A DNA stretch of 64,000 nt from assembly GCA_963675595.2 (NCBI GenBank), contig CAXXLZ010000002.1:864001-928000 (forward strand), given 5' to 3'. The stretch's first letter is position 1, and each line of letters begins with the position of its first letter. Made by a program: the position numbers and the translations under genes. Below are positions 4,070-64,000 of this stretch, one piece after another. Origin of the DNA: Thermodesulfobacteriota bacterium (GTDB taxonomy: Bacteria; Desulfobacterota; Desulfarculia; JACQYL01). A model generated the notes under the pieces. The model did not search any database and was not told the DNA's origin. It saw nothing but the letters and a program-made list of their open reading frames with translations.

Positions 4070-4135
4070 AAAAAAGATCATTCTTTCAAAAAGTTCCGAT
4101 TGCCGTCTGTACGGCTGTTTTTTTCGAACCCTCTC

Positions 4136-4159
4136 TGGTGTGTCACTTGGTGTGTCACT
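4136..4159 (+). repeat. 12-bp tandem direct repeat TGGTGTGTCACT x2; candidate integrase arm-binding sites
   Basis: Exact duplication about 67 nt from the tRNA 3' end, overlapping the integrase stop codon. Confidence 0.6.
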
Positions 4160-35215: not shown

Positions 35216-35412
35216 GACTGTAAATGGAAAGTCAAATGGGGACCACCCGTGGCCATTAAAAAGGGAGCCACCAGGTTGTTAATGAAACGTCGGCCGTGCC
35301 TGGAAGAACGGAGAACCGATTCTCCGACTTACGAGCAGAGGAGCCTGTGCGAGAATGGGTGCCTACAGTCAACTCGTCGGAGCACAGGCTCTTCTGCGGG
35401 CCGGACGGTTTC

Positions 35413-36162
35413 TCACTTTCCCTTGCCGCTCATGCTTTCTCGGAAACGGTAACTCTCGCCGTTCATGGTCAGAATGCAGGCGTGATGAGTCAGTCGGTCC
35501 AGCAGGGCCCCGGTGAGTTGTTCACTGCCGAAGACTTGGGGCCATTGCGAGAAGTCCAAGTTTGTTGTCATGAGCAGGGATTGGCGTTCATAGCTTTCCG
35601 CCACAATCTGAAAGAACAGTTGGGCGCCCTTTTCCGAAAACGGCACATATCCGATTTCATCTACGATCAGAAGGTCCATTTTGGCCAGGGACCGTTCGCA
35701 GTGAGACAATCGGAGCGCGGCCTGGGCTTCGCTGAGCAGATTGATGAGACCGGCGGCCGTAAAGAATCGGACCTTCTTTCCTTGTTCGCAGGCCGTGAGC
35801 CCCAAGGCAATGGCCAAATGAGTCTTTCCTGTGCCCGAGTTGCCCATCAGGATCACGTTTTCTTTCCGCTCCATGTATTCTCCCTGGGTCAAGTCCAGCA
35901 CTTTGGTTTTATTCAGGGAGGGAATGGCCGAGAAATCGAACCGGTCCAAGCTCTTGTGCACGGGAAACCTGGCTGTCTTGAGACGGCGTTTGTAGGCGTT
36001 GTCTTCGCGATGCTGGACTTCGATTTCCATCAAAGCGAGCAGGAATGCCTCATAGGTTCGATTGGCCTGTACGGATTGACGGGACATTTCCTGATAATGC
36101 TGGAGGACAGCCGGGAGTCTGAGTCGTTTGAGATAGCTCTCCAGAAGCATTCGGATTTCCAT
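35413..36162 (-). CDS. istB: IS21 helper ATPase IstB
   Basis: GNSGTGKTHLA, VDEIGY, ALLDRLTHH, GESYRFRES. Confidence 0.95.
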   Translation of the reverse strand: MEIRMLLESYLKRLRLPAVLQHYQEMSRQSVQANRTYEAFLLALMEIEVQHREDNAYKRRLKTARFPVHKSLDRFDFSAIPSLNKTKVLDLTQGEYMERKENVILMGNSGTGKTHLAIALGLTACEQGKKVRFFTAAGLINLLSEAQAALRLSHCERSLAKMDLLIVDEIGYVPFSEKGAQLFFQIVAESYERQSLLMTTNLDFSQWPQVFGSEQLTGALLDRLTHHACILTMNGESYRFRESMSGKGK

Positions 36163-36174
36163 GGCATCCCCCTC

Positions 36175-37656: not shown

Positions 37657-37780
37657 CTCCTCTACCCCCTGGCCTTTGGCTCTCATCTAAATAGCCTATC
37701 GGCCGAGGGGCCTCTACGGTGGTCCCCTTTTCGATGTCCACTACTTACTCAAATGGCCCCCTTTTAAATGTCCATACACA

Positions 37781-41557: not shown

Positions 41558-42826
41558 TCAATGAAGACCGCCGAACGGCCCGGCCCCGAATCCTTCCCTC
41601 GTCAGGAATCGGTTGAGGGTTTCCTTGGGAAGCGACCTCGAGATTTCTCTTGTCTGGCCGTATCTGCCGCGTGATATCAGCCTGGCGTTGATCAGGCCAT
41701 AAAGGTCCAGGGAACCAATGATGTCCGAGAACCTCCGTTGCGTCAGCGGCCTGACCCGTTCCAACTCGCAGAAATTGGCGTATCGATCATAGGCCTCGCC
41801 TGTAGTGACCCGTTTCGAAGTCTTGGCCAACAGATCGTAGCAGGAAAGAAGCGCAAGTTTTTGCTGCGGAGCGAGAGCCCGAACCATCTCCTCGGTCTTG
41901 TCCATCTCCAATCTGTGCTCAGCCAAATCCACGATTTCTTCGGACAGCCTGCCGCCGGTTTCCTGTGCCACCTTGGCCGACTTTGATAGAAGTTCCACCG
42001 CCTTTCTCGCATCACCGGTTTCCCGCGACGCCAATGCCGCGATCTTTCGGACAGCAGCCACGTCCACCTTTGACTTGTCCAATGCCTTTTCCACTCGAAG
42101 ATTCAGAATTTCTATCAAATCCAAGGCGTTATAAGGTTCAAAGAGCATGTCCGTTTTCTTGAGAACGCTCAGAATCCGAGGGTCCAGCATCTTGTCCCAG
42201 TTCAGTTTGTTCGTAACCATGATGAGAACCAACCGGCAGGGAATCTTTCTCGGAAGGGTTTTCCCAAGGAAGGTAATAAACTCGTCCGCATTGGGCTTGA
42301 TATTATCCGCCTCATCAATGAGAAGGCACAAGAAACCCTGGAACCGGTTCAGCTCTTCGATGATCCGTTCCTGCATCTGATCGATGGGAATGCCTTTCCT
42401 GTAGGTGCGAATCGAATCATTGAGGGCTCTCGCAAGCTCGTTCAACGCTCCGAAAGAAGACCTGGGCGAGGTCAAGTCCACGTATCTGTACTGAAACCCG
42501 ACAGACTGGGTTCGACAGTATTCCTGAAACGTCGAAAGCACGTGAATGAGGGAAACCGTTTTCCCTGAACCCGTAGGCCCGAAGACCAGCAAAGAACTCG
42601 GATGATCGCCGTCCAGGATCGGAGTCAGATGACAGACGATGCGTTTCAGCTGCTCCTCCCGGATATTTCGATCAAAAATCTCTTTCAGAACAGAAGTCCG
42701 CTCTTCCTCAGGCAACTTCTCGTCGTCGAGATAGTTGGGGTTCAGAATAAGACGATGATTCTTCTGCGAGTCATGCAATGAGCGGATGAATTGCAAGGAA
42801 GCTTCGGAATGATCTCCACCGGACAT
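41558..42826 (-). CDS. cdc6: Orc1/Cdc6-family replication initiator (AAA+ and C-terminal winged helix)
   Basis: REEQLKRI, LLVFGPTGSGKT, LIDEADNI, LDPRILS, FEPYNALDLIEILNLR, GDARKAVELL, TTGEAYDRY..FC, LTQRRFSDII..LDLYGLINA...SRGRYGQTREI. Confidence 0.92.
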   Translation of the reverse strand: MSGGDHSEASLQFIRSLHDSQKNHRLILNPNYLDDEKLPEEERTSVLKEIFDRNIREEQLKRIVCHLTPILDGDHPSSLLVFGPTGSGKTVSLIHVLSTFQEYCRTQSVGFQYRYVDLTSPRSSFGALNELARALNDSIRTYRKGIPIDQMQERIIEELNRFQGFLCLLIDEADNIKPNADEFITFLGKTLPRKIPCRLVLIMVTNKLNWDKMLDPRILSVLKKTDMLFEPYNALDLIEILNLRVEKALDKSKVDVAAVRKIAALASRETGDARKAVELLSKSAKVAQETGGRLSEEIVDLAEHRLEMDKTEEMVRALAPQQKLALLSCYDLLAKTSKRVTTGEAYDRYANFCELERVRPLTQRRFSDIIGSLDLYGLINARLISRGRYGQTREISRSLPKETLNRFLTREGFGAGPFGGLH

Positions 42827-42853
42827 TTTCAAACGATTCTTCTACAGGACATC

Positions 42854-49087: not shown

Positions 49088-51648
49088 GTAGGGTAGGCAG
49101 CGGCCCTCCTGCAGAAGCAGGCTAAGCCGCCACCCCCCTCCGAACCGTACGTGCGGCTTTCACCGCATACGGCTCTCTACTTACACTTACCTGGAAATCT
49201 CAGGTCAGGCAGAGTCCCGTCATGGAGTTGCCGATGGCAGTGAACGCACAAGACCAGGGTTTTCCGATTGCGTTCACGCATCAGCTCTTTCCATGGTTCG
49301 TTGCCATCAGCAACGGCACTCATACTCCCGGCGTGGTGCACCTCAAAGTAGCCGCCTGCACGCCCGCAGAACTCGCATTTCTGAGCCCTCAAACGAGAAA
49401 GGATATCAGAGTACGTGGCCCGATACTTCTTTGTATTGGGTACACTGTCGAGATTCTGCAACAGGGAAGAGCGGTAAAATTTGAGGTCCTTCAACCTGAA
49501 GAGCCGAGTGGTGCGTAATTTCCCATGGTACCATTCGGTAATAGCGTATTCCCCCGGTTCAACCTTCAGACGCCTCCTCACTGTTCTCTTGCTGCAGCGG
49601 TGTTTTCGGGCAAATGTTCTCGTCAAACTTCGGAACCAGACGGACTGCAGTTTCTGCAATGCCCGAACTGCCCCTTGAGCGAGAACATAGTAATTGGCAA
49701 AGCCCCTCAACTCCGCGTTGTAAATCGTGAGGATTTGTGTATCCATTAGGTTGACCAAGTTAAGTCGGGGCATGACTTCAAAGTTCTCATAGTTGCCATA
49801 TCCGTTCTTCTTGCAGAACGCCGCCATCTTATCGCTTGGGACTTTAAGCTGGATTCGACCAGCCCCAAGCCTCCTGGTCGTGTAGGTCCCGCCAAGTTTT
49901 ACCTTGACCGATTTTCCCACCGGGTAGGTTGTGATGTCATACCCGAGGAAGCGCGTTTCCTCAGTACAATGACGGAGGCCTGATTTCTCTTCGGAGATCT
50001 GCAGGCGCAAATGTTCTTGGACAAAACCACGAACAGTCTGCATGACCTGCCTGCAATCCTCCTTGGAGCCGATCATGCCGATGAGAAAATCATCGGCGTA
50101 CCGGATATACATCAGTCTCTTGTAACCTTCGTCATGGAAATCCAAGGAAGGGACTAAACGTCGCATCCTGCAATGTTCCCGAAGTTCGGCTTCTATTTCT
50201 TTGAGCTTTTCGGTCTCCCCAGCCTGCTGAGCCCGGGCGAACCTTATCCTTTGACGACGGACCAGATACTGATAGCGGAGATACTCTTCGTTCCGGCGTC
50301 TTCGCTTTCCCTTGTTGAATTCCTGAACCAGACTTTCCATGAACTCGTCGAGCTCATGAAGGTAAATATTGGCTAGGATCGGGGAAATAATTCCACCTTG
50401 AGGAGTTCCACTATACGTGGCATGGTATTTCCAATCATCAATATAGCCGGCCTTAAGCATGGCCTTGATGAGATTGATGAAACGCCTGTCGTCAATCCGT
50501 TTCTCCAACAGTCTTATCAACACCTTATGGTCGATATTGTCGAAGAAACCCCGGATATCCATGTCGATGATCCACTTAACGCCGGTCCAGTATTTCTGAA
50601 GATACCGCAAAGCGGTATGACACGATCTTTCCGGACGAAATCCATGCGAGCGATCAGAAAAGATCGGCTCGTAGATTCGTTCCAGAATCGCTCGTGTCAC
50701 TTCCTGGATCAGCTTGTCATCTCCGGAAGGTATGCCCAAGGGTCGCAACTTACCGTTGGCCTTGGGGATGTAAACGCGTTTTGATGGTTTGAACTTGTAA
50801 CGACCGTCTTTGAGCAGCTTAATAATGTTCTTTGCCCGCTCATCGGAAAAGCCGTCCAGGGTCACGCCGTCCACGCCCTTCGTCATAGCACCTTTGTTTG
50901 AATAGATATTGGCGTAGGCGTCTTCCCATAAAGTCGGGTTTTCCATGAGCCGAAATAGGCCGTTAACACGTTTCCCCTGCTTGGAGAGTTTTCCAAGAGC
51001 GTTCAACCTCTTGATGGTCGTAGCGGACAGCATCAGCACATCCTCCTTTCAGAGTGTTGAACACGTTGCATAAGCTGTCTTCCTTCCCCCGGATAGAGGA
51101 CCCTTCGTCGATGTCGCCACCGACTTATAGCCATATCCGTATCCCGCAATTGCGAGATCTGCAGAACCCATTACAGGCCCACCTTGGGTACTATGAAGAC
51201 TCCGTCGCCATACAGGTCCGAGCCGTGTGCTCGTGACCAGCTTAGGCGATCCCGCATTTACGCCAGATCAAAGATTCGCCGTGGTTAGGTCTCCCGTTCG
51301 TCCCTTTTATCCTTCTCGTCGAAGGCATGCCGGACAGACGGAATATGCAGGTCGAAAAGTGGGCCTACATACAGTCCGGACTGGCGTTTCAGCTACTTTC
51401 ACCAGTGCCCGAGCTACGGCCATGAGGACTGGGGTTCAAGCAGTTTAGCCTTGACCATACACGGCTTACGCTGACATCATCGTTGGTCGTAGCTACCTTC
51501 TTTGATGCCTTTTCCCAACATGCTGCACTCCCCCCTCCCTTTCGGGACAAGGACCATTGCTGGTCAGAGATAAGTTGGGTGCGTACAGGATATTTCCGTA
51601 ATCTTGGTGACTTCCGTCACACTCCTATCTGGCGCCAATACGGCGCAC
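49088..51648 (-). mobile_element. Group II intron inserted in phase 0 in the AAA ATPase gene
   Basis: 5' GTGCG at 51648; domain V GAGCCGTATGCGGTGAAAGCCGCACGTACGGTTC (49142-49175); domain VI ending CCCTAC at 49088; splicing gives DELEK|VLSGVKSSG. Confidence 0.95.
49177..51039 (-). CDS. ltrA: Group II intron reverse transcriptase/maturase with HNH endonuclease
   Basis: RPLGIP, HGFRP, GTPQGGIISPILANIYLHELD, YIRYADD, domain X, CEFC...EVHH...LCVHCH. Confidence 0.96.
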   Translation of the reverse strand: MLMLSATTIKRLNALGKLSKQGKRVNGLFRLMENPTLWEDAYANIYSNKGAMTKGVDGVTLDGFSDERAKNIIKLLKDGRYKFKPSKRVYIPKANGKLRPLGIPSGDDKLIQEVTRAILERIYEPIFSDRSHGFRPERSCHTALRYLQKYWTGVKWIIDMDIRGFFDNIDHKVLIRLLEKRIDDRRFINLIKAMLKAGYIDDWKYHATYSGTPQGGIISPILANIYLHELDEFMESLVQEFNKGKRRRRNEEYLRYQYLVRRQRIRFARAQQAGETEKLKEIEAELREHCRMRRLVPSLDFHDEGYKRLMYIRYADDFLIGMIGSKEDCRQVMQTVRGFVQEHLRLQISEEKSGLRHCTEETRFLGYDITTYPVGKSVKVKLGGTYTTRRLGAGRIQLKVPSDKMAAFCKKNGYGNYENFEVMPRLNLVNLMDTQILTIYNAELRGFANYYVLAQGAVRALQKLQSVWFRSLTRTFARKHRCSKRTVRRRLKVEPGEYAITEWYHGKLRTTRLFRLKDLKFYRSSLLQNLDSVPNTKKYRATYSDILSRLRAQKCEFCGRAGGYFEVHHAGSMSAVADGNEPWKELMRERNRKTLVLCVHCHRQLHDGTLPDLRFPGKCK

Positions 51649-52572
51649 CTTTTCGAGTTCATCGCACCAGATCACCGCTTTACCGAAAGCATCAATAGTT
51701 GCAGTAGCTTGCCTCATTTTTCGCTCGCTCTCTCCGACGAGAGAACCTTTCAAAGCGGACAAATCCAACCGGATGAGCGGCCATCCGAGGATCGAGGCCG
51801 CAGCTTTGCAGGAGAGCGATTTCCCGCAGCCCGGCACCCCGACCAAAAGCAACGCCTTGGGTCTTGGCAGATGATCATTGCCGGGCTCGAAGGCTTTTTT
51901 TCGGTTATTAATGTACTCCTTCAGGAGATCGAGGCCTCCGACTTCCTCGATCGAAACCGGCGGCCAAAACTCCATCAGTCCCGTGCGTTTGATCATCTGC
52001 TTTTTCTGCTCGGTAACGATCTCCCTGCAGAACCGTTTTCGTTCCACCAAAGACCGCGCAAACGCGGTCTCAGCCTCGAACTCGGTAAGTCCCAGGGCGG
52101 CTTCCACAGCCTCCACGTCGGCTTCGATCCCGACGCTCTCCCCGAGCTCTTCCTGAATCCTGCGAAGCTCCAAAGCCCCGGGAAGTTCGAAGTCCAGCAT
52201 CGTGAAATACTTTTCCAATTCCGACGGCAGACTTACCTGAGGCCCAACCAAGACCAGACAACATCCTTGGCCTTTCCAGGAGGGCAGGCTGTTCTGGATT
52301 TCCTGGATGATTTCCACGGAACCCAAGAAGTGGTGGAAGTTGTAGACAAACAGCACCGTGTCCTCTTTTCCAGAAAGCCACTTGAGACTGCTCAATGGAT
52401 CACTGGAATCGTCGTTTCGCATGCCGGACTGCAAATCCACGATGCCGCGTTGACAATCCCAGGAAAAAGTCCTCCAGCCTTCGGGTCGAATGGAGCCGAT
52501 CGCTCGATCCGGTTCGAGGGTGACGATGTAAAGCGCCGGATACCCGGCTTTGAGATAACTCGAAATGTCCAT
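51649..52572 (-). CDS. Ycf46-like AAA+ ATPase, exon 1
   Basis: VGGLDLLKEY, PKALLLVGVPGCGKSL, LVGESE, Walker B IWCDELEK at the intron boundary. Confidence 0.92.
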
Positions 52573-52694
52573 ATCGTTCTCCTTCTATCTGTTAACGAAA
52601 AAAGGGCCGCTTCCAGCACACGGCCGGAAACAGCCCACAAAAAAAGCGGCCGAAGCCGCTGCCGTCTATAATTTTTGATTCTTTTCTTCTTTGT

Positions 52695-54421: not shown

Positions 54422-54679
54422 CTAAGACGGAATGTCGTCTCCGGGCTGACCCATCGACTTGATGCCGAAGTCCAGGAATGCCTGCCGAAACAATTCCGAG
54501 GCGGTCGGGAGATCACTCGCCCGAAGATTGGGTGAGGTCTTCCAGTTGCCGTCGGCGTCCTTGAACACGCGTTGAAGACTGAAGGTCTGGTAGTTTCCTT
54601 TTGCGCCGTCGTTTTCCCAGACACTGACGACGACTCCGTTTGCCCGATACTTCCTCACCGGTTTGTTGCTCTCACTCAT
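54422..54679 (-). CDS. Putative PC4/whirly-like ssDNA-binding protein with acidic tail
   Basis: KPVRKYRANGVVVSVWEN...SLQRVFKDADGNWKTS.NLRASDLP; tail DDIPS resembles the SSB tail DDIPF. Confidence 0.65.
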   Translation of the reverse strand: MSESNKPVRKYRANGVVVSVWENDGAKGNYQTFSLQRVFKDADGNWKTSPNLRASDLPTASELFRQAFLDFGIKSMGQPGDDIPS

Positions 54680-54772
54680 GATCCTTCCTCCTCTTTCGTT
54701 GATATGATGCTCTAACAGCCGCTCCACCCGCAGCGGATGCACAGCGGACATCGTCCGTCGCGGTGGAGAATT

Positions 54773-55072
54773 TCACCGCAGTCCGGACATCGCTCGATCC
54801 TGATCTGGGGCGGTTTCATCGGTTGCTTCATTTCCGAGGTAATGGATCGCCTTTTTGACGGTTTCTTGGTGATCATAGAATTCATCCAACAGCTCCTTTC
54901 TCTTGGGTAACTCATTGGTTTTGAAGATTTCCTTTGCTTCGAGATGCAGGCCGATCAGGCCCAGTAACAGCTCCGCTCCGAATTGATGGCACGGCTGGAC
55001 CGTCTGCACCGCTTCCCGCCACTCGCGTCTCAGGCAAAAGAGGCCCCGACGCAACTTGGACGACGCATTCAA
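54773..55072 (-). CDS. Hypothetical protein
   Basis: 99-aa ORF at the head of the operon; overlapped by a short Zn-ribbon ORF (CPDC...CIRC) ending at 54712. Confidence 0.4.
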   Translation of the reverse strand: MNASSKLRRGLFCLRREWREAVQTVQPCHQFGAELLLGLIGLHLEAKEIFKTNELPKRKELLDEFYDHQETVKKAIHYLGNEATDETAPDQDRAMSGLR

Positions 55073-55286
55073 GATTCACCTCGTCTCTTTGGCTAGAGTG
55101 TTCGTTGTCATCGAAACGTGTGATTGAAGCTCTCGCTAAAACGAATGGGATACGTGCCGTCTTCAGGGACGGCGCGCCTTAAACGGTGGGTACAGGCTTC
55201 ACCCGACAAAATCGCTATTGGTGTTCCGGGGAAACCCGCATTGGTGACACGGATCGCTAAGCGCCTGGCTCTGCAAAGGTGTCCGC

Positions 55287-57311
55287 TTAACGTTCCGTTT
55301 TTTCGGTGAGCGGGATGGGAATGATTTTTTCGATGAAGTCCTTGGCGAGGTAGGCTTGAATGCCTTGAATCGTAAGGAATGATTGGATCTTGGTGAGGGC
55401 TTCGGGGTTCGTCGCGATCATGAACTTCTGAATGGAGGCATGGTTCGAGAGCGTCTCGATGTTCTTCCTGATGTCCGATTTGCCGGTCTCGACCTGAACC
55501 GCCAAACCACCGTTCCAGTCGGCCACGAGATCCAGGTTGTCCTTTTCCAGGAACACTCGGCAGGAAGCGCCAAGCGCCAGTCTGATTCTTTCGACCCAGT
55601 AGTTGTGCTCCAAACCGCCCCGAACTCGAGAATTCTCGAGTTTCAGGCCTTCTCTGTGGAGGTGCTCCACAGCCTGCGGCGTCAATTCAAAGAGCCGGTT
55701 TCGGTCCACAAGGACTTCCTTGAGCAGGCCTTTCGTGAGGAGACCGTCCAGGCAGAGAGTTCCCTCCCGAGGGTTCATTCCGAGCTTCTTGTAACGTTTT
55801 TGAACTCCGTCGAAGGGATGATGCGCGATGTCATCCAGCAGAATCCGCTCCATGGGGGAGAGTGTTTCCGAGCTTGAAATCTCATGAAAGGAGTTTATTT
55901 CCGGCTCTAGAGCTTGGTTTGGATGTTCATTTACTGAAGAAGAGTTTATTCTAGTTTGTATGACTTTATCCCGGACCATTCCCTTGTCGATTTTGAATTC
56001 CGGCACCGTTATCAGGAACGGAAACGGGACCCTTCCGGTCTTCACAATGGCCTCTCCGACCTTGAGCATGCCGTAGTAAGTCTCATTCCCGGTGGGAATG
56101 AGCTGGGAACGGCTCAAACTCGAAAAATCTTGAGACAGAGAGGTTTGAAAGCCGATCCGGGTGTAGACATTCCCAAGGGCTGAGACTGAGACTTTGTGGG
56201 GATGCTGATCAAGAATCACGATGCCTTCCCCGAGTTCCCTGATCTCCCTCATCATGACGTCGGTGATATCCTCTTCCTTGCTCGTTCGAAGAAGCAGGTG
56301 ATGGGCTTCCTCGATGACGATCATGTGCTTCAGAATCTCCCTTTCCGGCTCCTGCATCCGGTAGAAGTAGATCCAAAGAAGCAGGCTTCCGATGATGAAG
56401 GTCTTGTCCGAATCCGAAAGTCCGTCCAGCTCCAGGATCACGTTTTTCCGGAGCAGTTTTGGGATTGAAATGGGACTGAGACTGGGACTGAGAGCGGGAT
56501 TGAGCTTGGGAATAGGACTGGGATTGGGACTGGGACTGAGACTGACGCCGGGGGATTGAAAATTCACAACCTCGTTCAGGCCCGGGAAGGTGAGACTGTT
56601 CAGGGTTCTCTTGGCCGAACTCAGCCAAAGCATTTCTCTGCCACGGCGGTTTTGCTTGTCGATATACCGCTTCATGTCCGCGAAGGTGGGGAGACTCATG
56701 GCGTCCATCAAGACGTCCGACGCTCCCGGACCTAACAGATAAGCCTTCTCGATAATCTCCATCAGTTTCTTCGACCAGATGTGAGACTCCACTCCGGGCG
56801 GAGGAATCTTTGGATTGAAACGGAAAGGGCTGACCTCCCTTCCCACGGTAAAGATCAGAATGTCCTCGCTGCGGAAATCCGGATGTGTCAAAAGGTCCCG
56901 GTAGTTTCGTTTCCAGTCGAAGATCAGAAACGGGATTCTAGCTTTCACGAACTCCCGCAGAAGATTCATGCAGGCTGTGGTTTTTCCGGAGCCGGTCTGT
57001 CCGAAAAGACCCACATGGCGAATCAACTCCTCCTTTCTGAGACCGAAAGGGCAGAGCTTCCTGCCGCAATAGGAGACATGTCCGAGTTGCAATTCCCCGG
57101 CCGCCTCATTCTTTCCCGGCGGCGGCAGCATAACGGCGTTTTCGAACGCCACACCCGTGTGCTGCAGAAGCATGGAATCGACCATGGATTCGATCTCTCT
57201 CTTAGCTCTTGGATTCTCCTCCATCTGATAAAGCGACCACAAAGCCCGAAGCTCTCCTGAAGAGACAAAAGGCTCGAGCCGTCTCAGCTTTTCGGCGACG
57301 GTTACGATCAT
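55287..57311 (-). CDS. HerA/VirB4-like ATPase fused to wHTH and PD-(D/E)XK-like nuclease domains
   Basis: HVGLFGQTGSGKT, IFDWKRNYR, FRFNP, VIEEAHH, REIRELGEGIVILDQ; C-terminal RGGLEH...DL...VQVETGKS. Confidence 0.88.
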   Translation of the reverse strand: MIVTVAEKLRRLEPFVSSGELRALWSLYQMEENPRAKREIESMVDSMLLQHTGVAFENAVMLPPPGKNEAAGELQLGHVSYCGRKLCPFGLRKEELIRHVGLFGQTGSGKTTACMNLLREFVKARIPFLIFDWKRNYRDLLTHPDFRSEDILIFTVGREVSPFRFNPKIPPPGVESHIWSKKLMEIIEKAYLLGPGASDVLMDAMSLPTFADMKRYIDKQNRRGREMLWLSSAKRTLNSLTFPGLNEVVNFQSPGVSLSPSPNPSPIPKLNPALSPSLSPISIPKLLRKNVILELDGLSDSDKTFIIGSLLLWIYFYRMQEPEREILKHMIVIEEAHHLLLRTSKEEDITDVMMREIRELGEGIVILDQHPHKVSVSALGNVYTRIGFQTSLSQDFSSLSRSQLIPTGNETYYGMLKVGEAIVKTGRVPFPFLITVPEFKIDKGMVRDKVIQTRINSSSVNEHPNQALEPEINSFHEISSSETLSPMERILLDDIAHHPFDGVQKRYKKLGMNPREGTLCLDGLLTKGLLKEVLVDRNRLFELTPQAVEHLHREGLKLENSRVRGGLEHNYWVERIRLALGASCRVFLEKDNLDLVADWNGGLAVQVETGKSDIRKNIETLSNHASIQKFMIATNPEALTKIQSFLTIQGIQAYLAKDFIEKIIPIPLTEKTER
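56461..56546. repeat. Degenerate 6-bp tandem repeat (GGGACT/GAGACT/GGGATT) encoding an S/P-rich insert
   Basis: Encodes SLSPSPNPSPIPKLNPALSPSLSPISIPKL inside the ATPase. Confidence 0.8.
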
Positions 57312-58078
57312 TGGAACTCCCTCTCACACCAACCCCCGCATAGACAGGGGTAGTCCTCTTCACGCTCCGACCGGGTCAGCTCGTGCATTCGGCGGATTTC
57401 TTCCGCAGCCCAGTCAACCAGTTCTTGGGTAGGCTTGAAAATCTTGGGATTGTCTTTGGAGGATGGGAATTTCAGGAAATGAACTGAGACTCGATCGGGC
57501 AGCTTTCCGTTCACTTCCTGCTCGAGGAGGGCGTAGATCGCAAGCTGGAGTTTGATATCCGGCGAGATGTCCTGGTATTTCGAAGTCTTATAATCCCTGA
57601 TCTCGACGAATTCTCGAGAATAACGGGCATCCACGATGCCTTGGGCACCATGAAGTTGACTCACGAGCCGTTTTTCCGGCTCCGGCGGGCTTCTTCCGCT
57701 GCTCATTTCGCGGATAAACTGGTGAAGCCAGTTCAACGCCATCTTCCGAGCCTCAACAAGTTGGCCTTCGGCCTCGTCCCTATGGCCGCAGAGCGTCTGA
57801 ATCTCGAGAATTCTCGAGTTCCACAGGAAATCCACCCTGTCCAGTATTCGCCTTCGCGCATCTGCGTAGGGCGCTTCGAGAAACTCGGGAGTATATTCCC
57901 GAACAAAGGCTTCCGCAGCCTGGTGAACCACCTGCCCCACGATGAAGCACATCTTGGGTTTGGTCTTCAGTTTCCTGACGTATCTAAGGTAGAACTTTCT
58001 CGGGCATCCCCACCGGAACTGCGCATCCTTCTTGTAGGAGAGAATGGCCGACGGGCTCAGGATTCGTTTGAAGGTCAT
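57308..58078 (-). CDS. Cas4/AddB/RecB-like PD-(D/E)XK nuclease with probable Fe-S cysteines
   Basis: LSPS...CPRKFY, GIVD, IRDYKT, QLAIYA, C-terminal CLCGGWC. Confidence 0.88.
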   Translation of the reverse strand: MTFKRILSPSAILSYKKDAQFRWGCPRKFYLRYVRKLKTKPKMCFIVGQVVHQAAEAFVREYTPEFLEAPYADARRRILDRVDFLWNSRILEIQTLCGHRDEAEGQLVEARKMALNWLHQFIREMSSGRSPPEPEKRLVSQLHGAQGIVDARYSREFVEIRDYKTSKYQDISPDIKLQLAIYALLEQEVNGKLPDRVSVHFLKFPSSKDNPKIFKPTQELVDWAAEEIRRMHELTRSEREEDYPCLCGGWCEREFQ

Positions 58079-58236
58079 TTTGATCGGTCAAAACGGCTCC
58101 GCACCTGCATTTCCCTCACAAAGTACACGATCACTTTTTCCAGTTGATGTTTTTCCATGGCGAGCGCGAAGGCTCCCGGCACTTCATAGAGCTTCTCCAC
58201 GTCCGTCATGGTGACGTCCTTATATTGGTATTTCAT
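58075..58236 (-). CDS. 53-aa hypothetical protein missing from the ORF track (MKYQYKDVTMTDVEKLYEVPG...)
   Basis: Fills the gap between neighbours with an ATGA overlap; RBS GGAGG. Confidence 0.6.
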   Translation of the reverse strand: MKYQYKDVTMTDVEKLYEVPGAFALAMEKHQLEKVIVYFVREMQVRSRFDRSK

Positions 58237-58238
58237 TC

Positions 58239-58760
58239 TCAGGTTTTTCCTCCCAGCAGCTTGGCCTTGTCCTCTATCGACCTCCGGTACTCCACGGTAT
58301 CCCTGAGTTCCTTGCCCAAAAACAGAATGTCCCTGAAATAGGCGGCAAGTTCCATTCTCCGGTCCCGCTCGAGATCGATCTTCCGCGTCTCCAATCCGAT
58401 CCAGTCCCGGTCCCTTCGATAGACCTTGTAGCCCATCTCGAAAATAAGGTTCTGGCAGGCGCAGAGATCCCGCTCGATGCCGTAGAGGTTCTCCTCCTTG
58501 ATCAGCCTCCGCTTATCGATGGCTTCGATCACGGCTTCGATCCGATCTTCCGTCCTTTGAATCTTCGCTCCCAACATCCCTTCCAGGCTCGGAACCCCCA
58601 CATTTTTTTCGGAGGGCACACCTTCGTAAACAGAAGGGGACGCCAAGTACGACGCTCCGCTTCCGTAAGGGGAGACCAAGTAGGACGCGCCGCTTCCGTA
58701 ATCCCGTGTGGCCCGCATGGGAGAGTACGAATCAAGCCGCGAAAAATAATCATCACTCAT
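58239..58760 (-). CDS. Coiled-coil hypothetical protein, first gene of the nuclease-ATPase operon
   Basis: 173 aa; no SD; TATA-like box 29 nt upstream; internal 33-bp duplication. Confidence 0.75.
   Translation of the reverse strand: MSDDYFSRLDSYSPMRATRDYGSGASYLVSPYGSGASYLASPSVYEGVPSEKNVGVPSLEGMLGAKIQRTEDRIEAVIEAIDKRRLIKEENLYGIERDLCACQNLIFEMGYKVYRRDRDWIGLETRKIDLERDRRMELAAYFRDILFLGKELRDTVEYRRSIEDKAKLLGGKT
58635..58700. repeat. 33-bp tandem duplication encoding YGSGASYL(V/A)SP x2
   Basis: AGGGGACGCCAAGTACGACGCTCCGCTTCCGTA / AGGGGAGACCAAGTAGGACGCGCCGCTTCCGTA. Confidence 0.85.
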
Positions 58761-58781
58761 AAGTAGTTGAAATCAGCTTCT

Positions 58782-58798
58782 TATATAAAAAGCTTTCC
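58782..58798 (-). promoter_or_regulatory. BRE/TATA-like motif GGAAAGCTTTTTATATA
   Basis: TTTATATA starts 29 nt before ATG 58760 with no Shine-Dalgarno in between. Confidence 0.6.
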
Positions 58799-58989
58799 CT
58801 TTTTCCCGCTCAAATGAACGACCCGAAGCCAAACAGCTACACACGAATCCCTTTCAGAGGCCACTTACTGGTCAATGGCGGATGAAATTGGAAGGCGTCC
58901 CCGCCGTCCCCAACCCCGAACGAAAGGAGGAGATATCCGATCAAAAAACGCTGCGCCTTAACCCCTTTTCGAAAAAGGAGACCCAAGCC

Positions 58990-59838
58990 ATGGCTGCAAA
59001 AGCATCCTGTGGAAGGAGAAATCCGCCGGCATTGAAGAGCGGCAACACCGGTCATTACGACCTCGATCTCATGCTCGGCCATTCGCCCTTCCAGCCCCTC
59101 ATGCCCGTGGAAGCGTTGAAGCGCGCTCAAAATCATGCCTGGCTCTCGAAGAAACTGAAAAGAACCTTCGAGGAAAACGTGGCCTGCGGCATGAACTCGG
59201 TTCTGGAGGGATGGCCTCTCCAGGCTGAAACACGCCTCTGCAAGGCTCTTCAGGCCTTTGACGACGACAGGATCAAGCGCGTCACAGGCGCCTTGAAAGA
59301 GGTCTATTACAACGGCGGCCTCATGGGACACGTGGAGTCGCTTCAGCCTCCCATCCGACTCAAAGGAAAGGACTTCGTCTGGCACGGCGAGTTGGTGGGA
59401 GGAATGCGGGAATTTTCCAGAGACGATCAGGTCATTCCGTTCAAGATTCACGAAAGGATCGTTTACCTGAGGGAAGCCGGTATTCGGTTCCCGGAATACG
59501 CGATGTTCGTTCCCGGTGAATCCTTTGACCCCTCCAAGAAGGAACTGGCCAGGCAGGAACTCGGCAAGATGGGCAAGGAACTCGTCCTTGCCGCCAAAGC
59601 CACGGGTACCGCTGTGAAGGTAACGGCCAAGGCCGTGTTCGACGAGACCAAGGCAGTGGCGAGAACGGTCGGAAAAGCACCGGGGCTTTTCGCCGGCGCA
59701 TTTGCCGCCGTGCCCACGGCCATTGCAATCCCCATGGCTCTTGCGGCGGTTCCCGACCCGATCTTGTGCGGGGTCATTCGTCTGTCCAATCCCAAGACCG
59801 GAGGCTATGTCCTCATCAACCTCGGCAAATGGATCTAA
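58990..59838 (+). CDS. Hypothetical protein with hydrophobic Ala-rich C-terminal segment
   Basis: RBS AAGGAG; ends VPDPILCGVI...LINLGKWI. Confidence 0.7.
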   Translation: MAAKASCGRRNPPALKSGNTGHYDLDLMLGHSPFQPLMPVEALKRAQNHAWLSKKLKRTFEENVACGMNSVLEGWPLQAETRLCKALQAFDDDRIKRVTGALKEVYYNGGLMGHVESLQPPIRLKGKDFVWHGELVGGMREFSRDDQVIPFKIHERIVYLREAGIRFPEYAMFVPGESFDPSKKELARQELGKMGKELVLAAKATGTAVKVTAKAVFDETKAVARTVGKAPGLFAGAFAAVPTAIAIPMALAAVPDPILCGVIRLSNPKTGGYVLINLGKWI

Positions 59839-59893
59839 TGCCTCAAACCCGCCCCTCGATTCCGGGGGCGGGTGCGGGAAAGGAGGATCGTGT

Positions 59894-60598
59894 ATGGCAG
59901 GATTTGAAGACTTACCGTCGGGAGTGGTCTTGGGAAGAAACGGCAGGCCTGAAGCGGATTCATGGAGTGCCTGGTATCTGCGAGCGCTCCATTGGCAGGT
60001 CATGATGCTCTTCTTTGTCGTTGTCGCGCTTGTCGGTCACTACATGATCGCCCGGTACGGTATCGCTTCCAAGGACTTCCTGGTGTTCGTCCTGGTCTCG
60101 GGTCTGGTCTTCTGGGCCTTGATCCTAAGGGCGTTTTTCATCCTGAGAGGATTTCTGCAACCGAGAACAAGGCTCATCGCAAGCATCCTCTGTAGCGCCC
60201 TCATCCTGGCTCTTCCCTATCTCTACTTCGTCAATTCGGGAGCCGGGTTTTCCTTCGAGGGTCTGCTGAACGCCATCCGCCTGCCGGATTATGTCTTCCG
60301 TAAGGAACCGGTGCATTCGGTGCCCTACGATCCCTGGGACCCGACCCACGGTTACGTGACCTACAAACTGAATCCCTATGCCGAAGTCGTCCTCCGCGAC
60401 AAGGACGATCATGTGATCTCTTCCTTCGAGACCCACTACCGCTTCAACCAGAAGCTCCCTGCCGGTTGTTATACCCTGGAGATGAATTACCTGGGACGAA
60501 ACATCCAGGACAAGATCATTGTCCGGGCCGGGGAAAGGTACGTGGTCAAAGCCAACATGTTCAGAATGGACACCGAGATCTTCGGGGAGGGAGGATGA
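59894..60598 (+). CDS. Membrane protein (3 TM) with a soluble beta-rich C-terminal domain
   Basis: RBS AGGAGG; three hydrophobic segments. Confidence 0.75.
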   Translation: MAGFEDLPSGVVLGRNGRPEADSWSAWYLRALHWQVMMLFFVVVALVGHYMIARYGIASKDFLVFVLVSGLVFWALILRAFFILRGFLQPRTRLIASILCSALILALPYLYFVNSGAGFSFEGLLNAIRLPDYVFRKEPVHSVPYDPWDPTHGYVTYKLNPYAEVVLRDKDDHVISSFETHYRFNQKLPAGCYTLEMNYLGRNIQDKIIVRAGERYVVKANMFRMDTEIFGEGG

Positions 60599-60604
60599 GT
60601 CGCC

Positions 60605-61045
60605 ATGAAAAAGACATCGTTGATCGCCCTGTTCCTGATCCTCTCCCTCGGCTGCGGGAAACGAACCGTGGTGAGGGAACGAACGATCATCCGATACCAA
60701 CCCGTTCCTGTGAAAGAGGAAGTGCGGGTGGTGGAAAAGGCGCCGGTCAACCATTTTACGGTGAACTATCCCAAGCAGACCGCGGACGGCTACTTCGAGA
60801 CCGGCAAGATCGCCTACGGAAACTGTAATTTTCAGGAAGCCATGCGATGTTTCGCCGTTGTGCTGAACAGCTCGGCTCCGCCGGAGATCATCGCTGAGTC
60901 CTACGCCTACATGGGAGCCTGCTGTTTCTACGAAGGAAGAATGCGAGAGGCTGAGATGTTTTGTGAAAAGGCCAGGAAGACCTACCCCCAAATCAGACTT
61001 CGCCGGGAGGAATTCCCCAGAGAGGTGATCGAATTTTGTAACTGA
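60605..61045 (+). CDS. TPR-containing lipoprotein
   Basis: Lipobox SLGC; two TPR-like helical hairpins. Confidence 0.75.
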   Translation: MKKTSLIALFLILSLGCGKRTVVRERTIIRYQPVPVKEEVRVVEKAPVNHFTVNYPKQTADGYFETGKIAYGNCNFQEAMRCFAVVLNSSAPPEIIAESYAYMGACCFYEGRMREAEMFCEKARKTYPQIRLRREEFPREVIEFCN

Positions 61046-61065
61046 AAAAGCCTCCTTTCTCCGTC

Positions 61066-61090
61066 AAAAGGGCTCTATCGGAGCCCTTTT
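61066..61090 (+). terminator. Bidirectional-type terminator
   Basis: AAAAGGGCTC-TATCG-GAGCCCTTTT. Confidence 0.75.
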
Positions 61091-62077
61091 CTTATGCCCG
61101 AAAGATGGGAAATAATCTCAGTATTACTCAAATATAAACTTACATAAACCTGCATAAACTCACCAAAGACATAAAAAACCACACGAAAACTTGTTTTCGT
61201 GTGATATAAAATCATAGCTTTAATTATCTCACATAATCGCCAAGACCACCAAAAGCCCGCCGGAGGCGGGCCCCGCCCGCAGGGCGAAGGGGCGTTGGGT
61301 TCGTTAGAACCCGACTCACCGTGAACCCCATGGGGTTCACCAACCCACTCCCATCAAATTTCCATCGAACCGCTCCGATCCCAAAAGACCCCGATATCCA
61401 TCATCGGTCTTCCTCGGATCATAAAGTGACGATTTCCCAATCCCTAAAATCCGACTCTTCGGACATACCCAACCCCCCCCCCCCCGATCTCACCTCCGCC
61501 GTGGAACCAATCACCCATCTTCCCGACGGTAGGATACTCCCACCGGAAGCAGCCGCTCCGGACCACTCTCCCCTTCCAAAGAAGCATGCGTAGTAAGCAT
61601 CCGCTCAACGGATCGCATGCGCAACCCAAGTGTTCTTCCCGGTCATCGGCACACTTCGGAACCAGGGTCTTCAGTGTCACACGAAACCCGCCCTCTAAAA
61701 TGAATAGCGCCACCCGGCTCGTACCGATACGACCCGGCATGGCCACTTCATCGAGCGCTTGCCCAGACGAAAGCCGCAACGGCTCGCCCTTCTTGAAAGC
61801 GCTCAACGGTAATTCCCGCTCGCGGCACGAATTGCCGGCGACAATCATTACCACAAACATGGCCATGAAAAGGACGCCACTGACCGGCCTCATGGCCTTG
61901 CCCATCTCGCTCCGAGATGAAAAACTTTCGGCCGATGCCCGGAGCAGCGGACATCCGACCGCAAAGCTTATTAAGGAGCCGTCCTCAACTCTCCATACGC
62001 AGAGCGCATAGAGGAGAGCAACCATTCGAACGACTCCGTCGCCGCTCTGCCGAAAACCGACGTTCTAACACAGCGAA

Positions 62078-62632
62078 TCAGGGGCCTCGTTGCCCCTGCC
62101 AAATCTCCGCCGCTTTTTCTACAAGCCCGACAAGCTCCCTTGCCTTGCGGCGATGCTCGAAAGCCTGCTCCCGGTCACGACTTACTTGGGAGCGTCTCAT
62201 GTGCTCCATCGCGGGACCCATGAACTCATCCTCGACAAGAAGCTTGGCTCGCCCGAGCGTGTTCCGCTTTCCGTCATCATTCGAAAGACAGCTGTGCATG
62301 ATCGCCAAGTCCTGGATTTGCTCGAGCACTTTCCCGATCCTGTACCGCCGTTTGTCCACTTCGTATTTCCCGCAAACTCGCTCGAAGTCCCAGGTATTGA
62401 AAGCGCTTTCTGGATCAGACCAATCAAGCCATGCCCGGCTTTGGCCCTGTTCAGCTACCCGCATGATGGGCTCGTGCTCGCTCTGCACGTACCAGGCGAT
62501 GAATTCCTGGGCCTCGTCTTTCTCGTCGTCACTGTATCCAAGCCATGGATCGCTACTGCGCAGGATTTTCAATCCTGCTGGTGCCGGTGTGTCGAGTACG
62601 CTATATTCAACTACAACTTGTTTTTGTTTCAT
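62078..62632 (-). CDS. Hypothetical protein
   Basis: Start MKQKQVV after GGGAGG; helical. Confidence 0.65.
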   Translation of the reverse strand: MKQKQVVVEYSVLDTPAPAGLKILRSSDPWLGYSDDEKDEAQEFIAWYVQSEHEPIMRVAEQGQSRAWLDWSDPESAFNTWDFERVCGKYEVDKRRYRIGKVLEQIQDLAIMHSCLSNDDGKRNTLGRAKLLVEDEFMGPAMEHMRRSQVSRDREQAFEHRRKARELVGLVEKAAEIWQGQRGP

Positions 62633-62957
62633 GATGCCTTCCTCCCGGAGTCCGATTCTTTGACCGGACTCTCTCGGCTGTGTATTCACCGAGAGAGTGG
62701 AGGGATCATCAAAAGAGGAAGGAAACATTCGGAGACGTAAGTCGATCTGCCGGTGGTAGAATCGTTTTCAGGCGACCCTCGCAGAGGGGAAAGGCTTAAA
62801 TAGGGCTTTCGGCGATGGAGCCGAATCCCATTTATGCCTTTAGCCGTGAAGAAAACGGTAGCTACTCGAAGCTGATACCATATCGATACGCCTATCCTAT
62901 AATCCGGAAGAGCTTCTTCGCTTTGATCCAGAAACTGGATATGCTACAATCGATTGC

Positions 62958-63164
62958 ATGGGCTATACCAGACAGCGCCTCAAGCCATGGCAACGCCTTG
63001 GTATCACCAAAAAGCAATACCTCACCAGTAAGCCCTGGAAAGGCACCGGTCTCTCCAGAGAGAAGTACGAGGAAGTTATCTCGGTGGTACCGCTGGAGCA
63101 TTTGAATGACCTGAAGATCGAGGCAGAAGCCGAGGCTTTGCTCGAAAGGTTGTTTGCAGGATAA
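62958..63164 (+). CDS. Small hypothetical protein with internal repeat (KPWQRLGITKKQY / KPWKGTGLSREKY)
   Basis: 68 aa; repeat visible at protein level. Confidence 0.55.
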   Translation: MGYTRQRLKPWQRLGITKKQYLTSKPWKGTGLSREKYEEVISVVPLEHLNDLKIEAEAEALLERLFAG

Positions 63165-63223
63165 TCACTTGCAATGCCTGGCCATGTGGGCAAAGTTGTA
63201 TGCGATGACCTCCATCAGCAGCT

Positions 63224-63260
63224 TGGCCACGGGTGGTCCCCATTTCACTTTCCACTTGCA
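63224..63260 (-). mobile_element. Solo IS21 end related to the 35219 terminus
   Basis: Reverse complement TGCAAGTGGAAAGTGAAATGGGGACCACCCGTGGCCA vs TGTAAATGGAAAGTCAAATGGGGACCACCCGTGGCCA (3 mismatches in 37). Confidence 0.85.
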
Positions 63261-63365
63261 GGTGGCCTCAAACCGATGAAAGCCGATCTTGTCCCAGAGA
63301 GGAGTATTCTTCGTCCTACTTGATCCCATTCTTGACATCCCTTTGGAACAAAGGCTTTGTGTGGG

Positions 63366-64000
63366 TCATTGAAAAACCGTTCGTTCCATTAAGTCCGATT
63401 TAAGAATCAATCGGATAATCTTTGCTGAGAAGGAAGCTACCTGTCCTTTGGTCAACGACACTTCAACCTGATTGTCTGCTTTCCCCGCGATTGCAATTAA
63501 ATCCGGGACAATATGGTGTTCAAAAATATCTGAATCCACTGGAAGAAATGCCCCTGAAGTCATGTAGAAATTCCTCAACGGAATAACCCTGCCTGCAAAA
63601 ATGGCACCTTCTACATGGCTCATCCCCAGGTTCTTGTCCATAAGAGCTAAGGTGTCCCGCTTCAAGACGTCGGTAAGTTCCAATCCCTTACCTTTCAGGA
63701 CCCTTTCAGCGAAGAAAACTGAGTAACGAGAATTGATCATTCCCTGGAGGACGGTCATCTCATCGGAAAATGGTGCCAGATCAATAGATTCAAGGTACCG
63801 TTCGACCAAATTCTTTCCTTTGGGGCGATGATTATAAAGGATGTAGTCAGTGAGGATATCAAGTTCCGTTTCGTTCTGAAAAACGATCGTCTTTCTATTG
63901 ATCATGCCAAGTTTTTTGGCGTACTTGAGGACGGCAGGCTTGGGAATTTGTTTGGTCAGGGCAGCATTTATTGCAAAGCCGACTTGGCGTAATCGTTGGT
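63366..64000 (-). CDS. Hypothetical protein, 5' end outside window
   Basis: Frame stays open to the window edge upstream of the tracked 179-aa ORF. Confidence 0.7.
   Translation of the reverse strand, partial: QRLRQVGFAINAALTKQIPKPAVLKYAKKLGMINRKTIVFQNETELDILTDYILYNHRPKGKNLVERYLESIDLAPFSDEMTVLQGMINSRYSVFFAERVLKGKGLELTDVLKRDTLALMDKNLGMSHVEGAIFAGRVIPLRNFYMTSGAFLPVDSDIFEHHIVPDLIAIAGKADNQVEVSLTKGQVASFSAKIIRLILKSDLMERTVFQ

Follow-up and report, generated by a model that had tools for sequence, protein, structure and literature searches.

In archaeal end resection, the HerA-NurA operon couples the gene of a HerA-clade ATPase with a DUF87 domain to a nuclease gene, and the ring motor is expected to feed DNA to the nuclease. 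TdtA of the Thermus element ICETh1 follows the same operon logic, its gene adjoining nuclease genes, and, like TraB of Streptomyces plasmids and actinomycete integrative and conjugative elements (AICEs), it is an FtsK/HerA-type motor that moves DNA without a classical type IV secretion system (T4SS); the C-terminal winged helix of TraB reads repeats on the element. We analysed a 64,000-nucleotide stretch (the window) of contig CAXXLZ010000002.1 from a Thermodesulfobacteriota bacterium (assembly GCA_963675595.2, positions 864,001 to 928,000), in which a four-gene operon at positions 55287-58760 encodes a motor of this kind beside a Cas4-like nuclease. We tentatively read this operon as a translocase-nuclease machine that would propagate the integrative element carrying it by acting on the element's own DNA; an element-borne conflict system fits as well and is a somewhat less probable reading, and what remains belongs to roles that we have not thought of. 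Among described systems, CedD is presented as a HerA-clade DNA-import ATPase of Sulfolobales (PMC11868833), Replic_Relax as a PD-(D/E)XK family used as MOBC relaxase (PMC3424549, PMC5357655), and arCOG00280 'HerA-like helicase', Orc/Cdc6 and integrases as being among the commonest families of archaeal dark-matter islands (PMC4158269). The closest published description, as far as these accounts are covered here, is a computational one, the 'HerA/FtsK capture' neighbourhoods of Rakesh, Aravind and Krishnan (NAR 2024, PMC10853773), which combine Orc/CDC6, HerA/FtsK, a restriction-endonuclease (REase) domain and a winged helix-turn-helix (wHTH) and are read there as anti-invader.

The four genes lie on the minus strand in the order P4 (P0004), P3 (P0003), P0002, P0001. 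P4 (58239-58760), defined from its open reading frame (ORF) and translation, encodes a 173-aa partner protein without a family match; P3 (58075-58236) a 53-aa protein with a basic C-terminal tail; P0002 (57308-58078) a 256-aa Cas4/RecB-like PD-(D/E)XK nuclease, with four cysteines placed as in iron-sulphur (Fe-S) nucleases; and P0001 (55287-57311) a soluble 674-aa ATPase of the HerA/FtsK superfamily with a fused winged helix and REase-fold domain. P0003 and P0002, and likewise P0002 and P0001, overlap by 4 nt (ATGA), and a 2-nt gap separates P0004 from P0003, an arrangement that bears out the tight coupling stated in the original prediction, made earlier from the sequence alone. Across the four copies of the operon in the genome and one relative from a metagenome-assembled genome (MAG; locus L009), dN/dS is 0.11-0.23 for the ATPase gene, 0.14-0.25 for the Cas4-like gene, 0.11-0.36 for P4 and 0.03-0.17 for same-length pairs of the 53-aa gene; the P3 picks in copy A and L009 are longer ORFs, and their pairs (including values of 0.00 and 0.28) were set aside. 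Over every listed pair and all four genes the range is 0.00-0.36, with dS between copies of 0.07-0.75 and all four genes intact in every copy. All four, the 53-aa gene included, are under purifying selection and are therefore real genes, and the intact frames and low dN/dS ratios rule out a pseudogene or decaying locus. Two genes further upstream (388 and 288 aa, 58837-60991) were considered as operon members and rejected, being absent from sibling copies A and C and from L009.

Between 25 and 35 nt before the P4 start codon there is a GAAAGCTTT box (58789-58797, minus strand) with an A/T-rich stretch after it; this site overlaps palindrome I7. Box and stretch are identical in all four genomic copies and in L009. 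Their conservation despite the diverged flanks of copy C and L009 suggests that the operon genes form a transcription unit of their own, of which the box is a likely promoter or operator. Scans of 54700-61400 with sigma-70 and terminator consensus patterns gave no more sites than shuffled sequences and none at the operon start.

The operon belongs to an integrative element whose left end (3994-5318) consists of a tRNA-Val(TAC) gene (3994-4069, plus strand) and a tyrosine integrase gene (4155-5318, minus strand). The right end, a 45-bp repeat of the 3' part of tRNA-Val, is found 130 kb further downstream at window-scale position 134373, beyond the window; the element measures ~130 kb, from window position 3994 to window-scale 134418 (C2:867994-998417), with ~70 kb beyond the window edge. 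The host genome (three contigs, 98% complete) contains three sibling elements of ~76, 92 and 94 kb, at C2:4229880-4305527, C1:1402412-1494237 and C2:1618676-1712168 and with tRNA genes Phe-GAA, Arg-TCG and Arg-ACG; the tRNA gene at the boundary differs among all four, and a 45-47-bp repeat of its 3' part forms the other boundary. A backbone is common to the four at 90-96% identity, and the DNA between its blocks differs. It comprises the integrase end, a gene for a 205-aa protein, the gene of a 390-aa protein, M390 (15671-16843, plus strand), with ~4 N-terminal membrane segments by hydropathy and no Pfam or PHROG match, a block at ~39.7-63.2 kb and a right-end gene. The block holds cdc6, PRiA4_ORF3, DUF3150, a group II intron, an AAA ATPase, DUF2958, RadC and the operon, which sits in the conserved backbone of the element and not in variable cargo. 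The Orc1/Cdc6 gene (41558-42832, minus strand; Pfam Cdc6_C 1.8e-24, Cdc6_lid and AAA_22) lies 12.5 kb from the operon.

Conjugation genes are not recognisable in this element. No relaxase, pilin or VirB set occurs in the window, as the original prediction had stated, and with the models searched the absence of T4SS and relaxase extends to the rest of the island and to the genome. In the element beyond the window, where 55 ORFs of at least 70 aa at window-scale 63-137 kb were scanned (a 2371-aa ORF included), no T4SS or relaxase was found, and the ~70 kb hold a type VI secretion system (T6SS), insertion sequences (IS) and a split RecD2 gene instead. The whole 98%-complete genome has no match to VirB4 (PF03135, TIGR00929) or VirD4 (PF02534), nor to the relaxase models PF03432, PF08751, PF03389 and PF13814, which cover MOBP, MOBF, MOBQ and MOBC, the PF13814 search having been run without a positive control. 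A virus was considered and dropped because PHROG searches of 40 backbone proteins gave no structural or virion match (two ATPases matched 'terminase' at the P-loop level only), none of 92 candidate stretches in IMG/VR was a relative, and phage records gave one partial match.

The absence of any conjugation-model match makes export attractive; in one version the ATPase would serve as coupling protein or export pump independently of a T4SS, bring its own nickase and cooperate with membrane proteins of the element in the manner of TraB, TdtA or the Ced system. Export is attractive also because the four siblings are diverged (dS 0.07-0.75) and carry different integrase and attachment (att) specificities, suggesting repeated acquisition, and because genes of anti-restriction type flank the operon (RadC, DUF2958, DUF3150 and PRiA4_ORF3; ArdC in relatives). 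Genes of this kind are found in leading regions of conjugative elements. In some loci the membrane protein M390 neighbours Cdc6, and it would be a candidate partner, yet it is found near only nine of 59 related loci (four of the 26 with full flanks, as defined below); no pilus or pore genes were recognised, and, coding repeats and three CATAAAC repeats (61130-61160) aside, no clt-like repeat array was found in 54500-63500. We regard an export pump as improbable, and the properties of the ATPase itself, described next, add to this.

P0001 matches Pfam DUF87/HerA (PF01935) with 44.5 bits (cut-off 23.2) over residues 87-162, and PF01935 is precomputed on nearly all of its listed homologs. The ATPase core covers residues ~95-445 (55977-57029, minus strand), with Walker A at 104-111 and Walker B around E335; Walker A residues G104, G109, K110 and T111, Walker B E335 and R358 are invariant among 42 aligned homologs. 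HerA models match residues 292-440. An insert of ~130 residues separates the Walker A and B motifs, and a Ser/Pro-rich linker at residues ~254-285 varies in length among copies (proteins of 648-678 aa); the linker DNA (56455-56553) is a repeat family, D1, of 12-nt-periodic GGGACTGAGACT-like repeats, and protein alignments to relatives break there. The NCBIfam scores, in bits against cut-off, are 75/600 for CedD, 35/800 for HerA_antiphage, 24/800 for HerA_Thermprot, 18/970 for helicase_HerA and 11/700 for CedB. By these matches P0001 is best classed as a HerA-clade FtsK/HerA ATPase whose best named relatives, HerA- and CedD-like, all score far below family level, and the label 'VirB4-type' given to it earlier proved too specific.

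The comparison with the known motors is accordingly one of likeness without membership. With HerA-NurA the operon shares the coupling of ATPase and nuclease genes, but the nuclease is of Cas4/RecB type and not NurA, there is no Mre11-Rad50, a wHTH and a REase domain are added, the location is a mobile element, and the HerA equivalogs of NCBIfam reach 18-24 bits, their cut-offs being 800-970. A winged helix in the C-terminal part of an FtsK/HerA motor is reminiscent of TraB and FtsK-gamma; compared with TdtA and TraB, however, P0001 has no predicted membrane association, no recognition repeats were found, and there is no sequence-level membership. The best NCBIfam model, CedD, is a HerA-clade ATPase that, like CedB, moves DNA between cells, which speaks for export, but CedD as described (PMC11868833) possesses a membrane domain and, N-terminally, a VirB4-like one, P0001 is not accompanied by Ced or Ups partners, and the score is 75 against 600 bits. 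TrwB_AAD_bind reaches 18.8 bits (cut-off 20.5) in the P-loop only, and P-loop_TraG 13.1 against 25.8. Kyte-Doolittle analysis found no membrane segment in P0001-P0004 (no 19-residue window of P0001 at or above 1.6); P0001 therefore lacks the anchor of a coupling protein and none of its three partners supplies one, which weakens the coupling-protein part of the original prediction.

The C-terminal 230 residues of P0001 were folded together with 48 homologs (AF2, pLDDT 85; 84.8 for the alpha/beta domain alone). Residues 480-557 (55641-55874, minus strand) form a predicted MarR-like winged helix (pLDDT >90), which VIA-align superposes on 3s2w with Z 12.2, rmsd 2.6 and 78 aligned residues; many MarR, PadR and ArsR chains match at Z 10-12. 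Residues 566-663 (55323-55616, minus strand) match by the same program Cdn1 (Z 8.0), TIP26 (7.9), NucS (7.6), AF1548 (7.2), Can2 (6.9), BspD6I (6.9), VRR_NUC (6.7), Hjc (6.3) and BamHI (6.0). Foldseek places Ecl18kI first (E 5.7e-4), followed by Can2, Card1 and FokI; Pfam gives weak matches to AHJR-like, Hjc, MTES_1575 and Mrr_cat, and PDB profiles to Cas4 (E 0.0067) and Hjc (0.12). The model thus assigns the domain a PD-(D/E)XK (REase) fold, with an alpha-beta-beta-beta-alpha-beta core and acidic residues on its strands 2 and 3; most of the best structural matches are nucleases of this fold, at middling scores (Z 6-8), and the HerA-type ATPase with its own wHTH and PD-(D/E)XK-like domain that had been predicted is recovered.

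The family signature of this domain is H569, E589, D594, E606-x-E608, N617 and K620. It has a D...ExE arrangement like that of BamHI. E606 is kept in 46 of 48 distant homologs and K/R620 likewise in 46 of 48; at both positions the two exceptions, with Q606 and T620, are P0001 and L009, its closest relative from a MAG. Q606 occurs in 109 of 118 closer homologs. The REase-fold domain of P0001 is thus probably non-cutting, and a built-in nickase, as originally proposed, is unlikely for this protein because Q606 replaces a near-invariant Glu and T620 a Lys. Export is disfavoured because the motor is soluble and probably cannot nick in the Q606 clade. The order wHTH then PD-(D/E)XK domain is that of MOBC/Replic_Relax (PF13814), another point for the export pump, and hhalign of the wHTH and REase domains against five Replic_Relax neighbours returned a probability of 77% (E 2e-5). 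This match covers the winged helix and first helix only, however; the nuclease domain alone yields 0.8%, and the catalytic motif of the P0001 family is D...E-x-E...K. Of the two comparisons proposed earlier for the C-terminus, the one with REase folds is supported, and the one with Replic_Relax gives a profile match over the wHTH part only. In a Pfam scan of the 48 members PF13814 was absent from the best 25 of 48 families listed. We know of no solved MOBC structure.

The partner conserved with the ATPase is P4. In 56 of the 60 loci with an ATPase ORF the gene immediately before that of the ATPase, in the same orientation, encodes a P4 homolog, as found by ORF clustering followed by a P4 hidden Markov model (HMM); 44 were counted by script and 12 are loci in which the longest-ORF start of the ATPase overlaps P4. 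The P4 N-terminus is variable and its C-terminal ~110 aa are conserved, with the family motif E.R.E...CWRD in the alignment (AAYFRD in P0004). Within the variable part a 33-nt tandem repeat (58634-58699) encodes YGSGASYL(V/A)SP, in three units in copy A, two in this copy and copy B, and one in copy C and L009. Neither P0003 nor P0004 has a match in Pfam, NCBIfam, PADLOC or PHROGs. From the gene orders compared, the ancient core is P4 and the ATPase only.

P0002, the Cas4-like nuclease, matches Pfam PDDEXK_1 with 60.8 bits (cut-off 22, E 2.5e-16); D150, D162-x-K164 and Q178...Y182 are intact and are conserved in 60-62 of 62 homologs. Its cysteines, Cys25 and C245-x-C247-xxx-C251, correspond to the C...CxCxxxC pattern noted originally; C25 is conserved in 59 and C251 in all 62 of 62 homologs, and the CxCxxxC spacing is atypical. 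Their placement points to a putative Fe-S nuclease. P0002 matches PADLOC Cas4 at E 4e-8 and phrog_69 exonuclease at E 5.6e-15 and stays, with 31.4 bits, under the cut-off of 65 of the cas4 equivalog TIGR00372; among the window ORFs scanned with Pfam there are no cas families. By model and catalytic residues it is a Cas4/RecB-type nuclease and not a CRISPR-associated Cas4 proper.

P3 and the Cas4-like gene stand between P4 and the ATPase gene in all four genomic copies and, among 67 related loci, only in L009, and wherever P3 is found, so is the Cas4-like gene. Two relatives repeat this four-gene order with a P0003 homolog of 47-51 aa, G027 (two copies, 46% ATPase identity, Q606) and G014 (32% ATPase identity, E606 retained). 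In at least nine cases Cas4-like homologs in the protein database lie on contigs of equal size to those of ATPase homologs, including two ATPases with E606 (P0011, P0014). The distribution indicates that P3 and the Cas4-like gene were inserted later, in a clade-specific event, and lie outside the ancient core; they are not the part of the module for which they had been taken. G014, P0011 and P0014 rule out a strict linkage of Q606 to the Cas4 insertion; since ATPases with E606 and a Cas4-like gene exist, the insertion would be older than the E606Q change, and it seems that the fused nuclease gave up a catalytic residue only once a separate nuclease was present.

The ATPase family is large. We scored 1,325 of 7,997 candidates as P0001 relatives of similar length (>1,300), and a profile of the C-terminal module retrieved 4,781 cluster representatives at E <=1e-3 and 615 clusters (50% identity) at E <=1e-30, many of the short matches probably being gene fragments. 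The scan of species-representative genomes gave the 67 loci, in Thermodesulfobacteriota, Chloroflexi, Planctomycetota, Verrucomicrobiota/Lentisphaerae, Aminicenantes, Zixibacteria, Ignavibacteria and others, with six on contigs binned as archaea (Hodarchaeota, Nano-, Bathy- and Thermococci). Neighbourhoods were counted in 59 loci whose ATPase ORF has 400 aa or more, and in the subset of 26 with at least 8 kb on both sides (full-flank). In 20 of 59 loci (11 of 26 full-flank) the P4-ATPase pair has an Orc1/Cdc6 homolog no more than 10 kb away, frequently as the next gene, and this linkage spans Chloroflexi, Planctomycetota, Verrucomicrobiota, Aminicenantes and Zixibacteria at ~35% ATPase identity. 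An integrase is near the pair in 11 of 59 (7 of 26) and a stand-alone Replic_Relax gene in 4 of 59 (4 of 26). Other neighbours are ArdC, SprT, RadC, DUF4326, DUF6876, DUF932, ParB_N, a DNA methylase, serine recombinases, a MoxR-type ATPase with two unknown partners, and radical-SAM proteins. Several copies per genome occur, four here and two or three in at least five MAGs, and presence is patchy, a homolog being found in five of 40 relatives of the host. Transfer RNA genes are within the flanks of only four of the 67 loci; att repeats of neighbouring tRNAs, searched for in L010, L013, L015 and L023, were not found within the flanking DNA examined, a 25-nt tRNA-Thr pattern in the L015 genome matching the tRNA itself only, and therefore no small element could be delimited.

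The link to Orc1/Cdc6 brings these loci close to the capture neighbourhoods. As described in PMC10853773, these too join HerA/FtsK, wHTH and REase to Orc/CDC6 in mobile neighbourhoods, and one version has a helical insert in the ATPase and no FtsK-alpha, as P0001 has its ~130-residue insert. They fit a rival explanation of the operon, an anti-phage or anti-plasmid defence or inter-element competition system borne by the element, in which the motor would intercept invading DNA at entry, replication or packaging, winged helix and Orc/Cdc6 would localise it, and the REase domain, or the Cas4-like nuclease in the Q606/Cas4 clade, would destroy the target. That account also holds, however, that an inactive REase is invariably inserted in Orc/CDC6 between the AAA+ core and the C-terminal wHTH, and the Cdc6 partners found here leave no room for it, as judged from their sequences: in the window Cdc6 the lid (241-300) runs directly into Cdc6_C (316-405), and the consensus of 21 partners, most of 315-377 aa, has Walker A, Walker B, GDAR and wH and no insert. 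The Orc1/Cdc6 partners are canonical by this measure. Compared by description, the portions of PMC10853773 covered here, which offer prediction only, contain no mention of P4, of P3 and the Cas4 insertion, or of the Q606 clade; new here are the four att-bounded siblings, the genome-wide absence of T4SS and relaxase matches, the apparent order of Cas4 gain and E606Q loss, and the canonical Cdc6 partners.

Matches to defence families bear on the same rival. PADLOC gives mad8 at 1e-11, HerA at ~1e-9 and a weak DndH match for P0001 and a weak DruK match for the operon, besides that to Cas4, and HerA_antiphage of NCBIfam reaches 35 bits, yet all of these lie far below family level (the HerA_antiphage cut-off is 800). 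The operon resembles the SIR2-HerA and DUF4297-HerA defence systems in joining a HerA-type ATPase to a nuclease effector, and differs from them in lacking a SIR2 or DUF4297 partner, in its fused or Cas4-like nuclease and P4 partner, and in matches of only ~1e-9. A compact two-gene cassette transferred widely among many phyla and into archaea would suit a conflict system, as would the element's cargo, rich in TPR-CHAT, caspase-FGE and NERD-kinase genes, and the defence candidates that neighbour five to six loci. We scanned 127 neighbours, taken in locus order (L009-L047) from 213 selected (at least 180 aa, within 6 kb), and found no T4SS or relaxase family among them; 14 had a PADLOC match at 1e-8 and 113 had none. 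The strong ones are PDC-S54 twice, PDC-M71A/B, E1-E2, LmuB and a PD-T4-6-type kinase; the PDC-S54 genes, at L016:15115-16425 (E 1.8e-155, Aminicenantes) and L033:17143-18372 (E 1.5e-91, Nanoarchaeia-binned), both lie 3-5 kb downstream of the ATPase gene. Homologs are thus linked to integrase and Cdc6 and do not lie mainly among recognised defence genes. Against a conflict system also stand the position of the operon in the backbone of four siblings, outside the variable cargo slots, the three to four copies per genome, which are odd for defence, and the lack of a full-length homolog in 50,697 phage records (one partial match), in 72,556 plasmid records (one partial match, 25% of the query) and in IMG/VR.

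We therefore favour propagation of the element, because of the operon's backbone position and copy number, its linkage to Cdc6 and integrase, its mobile-element neighbours and the pairing of motor and nuclease genes, and because all four genes are intact and selected and PADLOC-matching neighbours are few (14 of 127). P0001 would form a ring ATPase that its winged helix and probably non-cutting REase-fold domain place on a specific DNA site, with P4 as the universal helper of the ATPase. The motor would thread DNA, the presumed substrate, while the Cas4-like nuclease, together with the 53-aa protein, would cut or resect it; cutting would fall to the fused REase domain itself in most of the other family members, where its catalytic residues are intact. 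This work may be coupled to the canonical Orc1/Cdc6 of the element, the task being to process, resolve, segregate or export the excised or replicating element. Within element propagation we put intracellular replication or segregation, itself a doubtful assignment, ahead of export. The original idea of T4SS-independent transfer is thus partly supported: it keeps the missing T4SS and relaxase and the integrase link on its side, has the soluble motor and the Q606/T620 changes against it, and is not favoured over other propagation roles.

Several observations weigh against propagation. HerA-type ATPase and nuclease pairs are also the core of established defence systems, and the only PDB sequence match of P0001 is a HerA chain (8wiv), at a weak E of 6.8e-5; the weak PADLOC matches, the strong PADLOC neighbours and the anti-invader interpretation of the capture neighbourhoods point the same way. 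Sharing at 90-96% identity by four siblings is also expected of inherited hitch-hiking cargo. The co-occurrence with cdc6 and integrase, on which the original prediction was to be checked, holds in part: 15 of the 26 full-flank loci have no Cdc6 within 10 kb and 19 no integrase. Some pairs lie 3-6 kb from housekeeping genes (L026, L013, L032), as expected of a small autonomous cassette, and a mobile machine might have been expected among the plasmid records, where no full-length homolog occurs. Binding-site repeats for the winged helix were not found near the operon (54500-63500, coding repeats aside), and a limited literature search found no experimental work on the P4-ATPase family.

A broader possibility, which we consider unlikely, is that P4, the ATPase and Orc1/Cdc6, sometimes with M390, are the propagation engine of an undescribed, cross-domain class of large tRNA-integrating elements without T4SS or capsid genes, whose built-in nuclease was retired in one clade after the Cas4-type and 53-aa proteins were recruited. 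Orc1/Cdc6 might then load the HerA ring as a replicative or segregation motor in bacteria without MCM, or the ring might export the element by a route unrelated to conjugation. If the operon serves the element, it would show how islands of 75-130 kb replicate, segregate or spread without recognisable conjugation or virion genes, and bacterial Orc1/Cdc6 homologs would gain a partner motor; if it serves defence, it would be a new HerA-based type with a sequence-reading head. Loss of the catalytic Glu in the Cas4-joined clade is a natural experiment on the handover of nuclease duty within a machine, and four siblings in one genome are a ready comparison of backbone and cargo.

The remaining contents of the element are as follows. 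Only this copy carries, at window-scale 99-130 kb and inside the att-bounded element, a complete T6SS cluster (TssA-M, Hcp, VgrG, ClpV), accompanied by FHA, kinase, PEGA and FGE-sulfatase genes. From 64950 onward a RecD2-type helicase gene (OB_YrrC, HHH_RecD2, AAA_19/AAA_30) is broken up by a Mutator-family and a DDE_Tnp_1 transposase. A second FtsK/HerA-type ATPase, of 440 aa (6586-7908; DUF87 1.1e-5), lies with two neighbours of no family (5787-6581, 7919-8257) in a segment next to the integrase that is absent from the siblings. The cargo at 10959-34041 is conflict-rich, with genes for TPR-CHAT (1268 aa), caspase-PEGA-FGE-sulfatase and NERD-kinase (1380 aa) proteins, the last followed by two proteins of 607 and 1703 aa that belong to no known family. 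An IS21-type insertion (34529-37686) comprises a Mu-transpos_C_2 transposase and two tandem istB-like genes (34529-35215, 35413-36162), and its flanking sequence has copies at four other places in the genome. The group II intron of the backbone block (49088-51039; Rfam Intron_gpII, 73 bits at 49088-49177; RT-maturase-HNH ORF at 49177-51039) seems to have been inherited with the element, because its region aligns contiguously with all three siblings. At 51604-52671 a plus-strand 355-aa ORF of no family overlaps a minus-strand 315-aa ORF, of which the latter is likely the real gene because it matches AAA (9.8e-13) and phrog_8638 (8e-52). Finally, an A/T-rich intergenic region at 61120-61210, where the original prediction placed a possible nick site, has three CATAAAC repeats at 61130-61160, spaced ~10 nt, followed by a hairpin with a 12-bp stem (61178-61205) and, further on, G+C-rich palindromes (61255-61340), and could be an origin-like or regulatory region of the element backbone.

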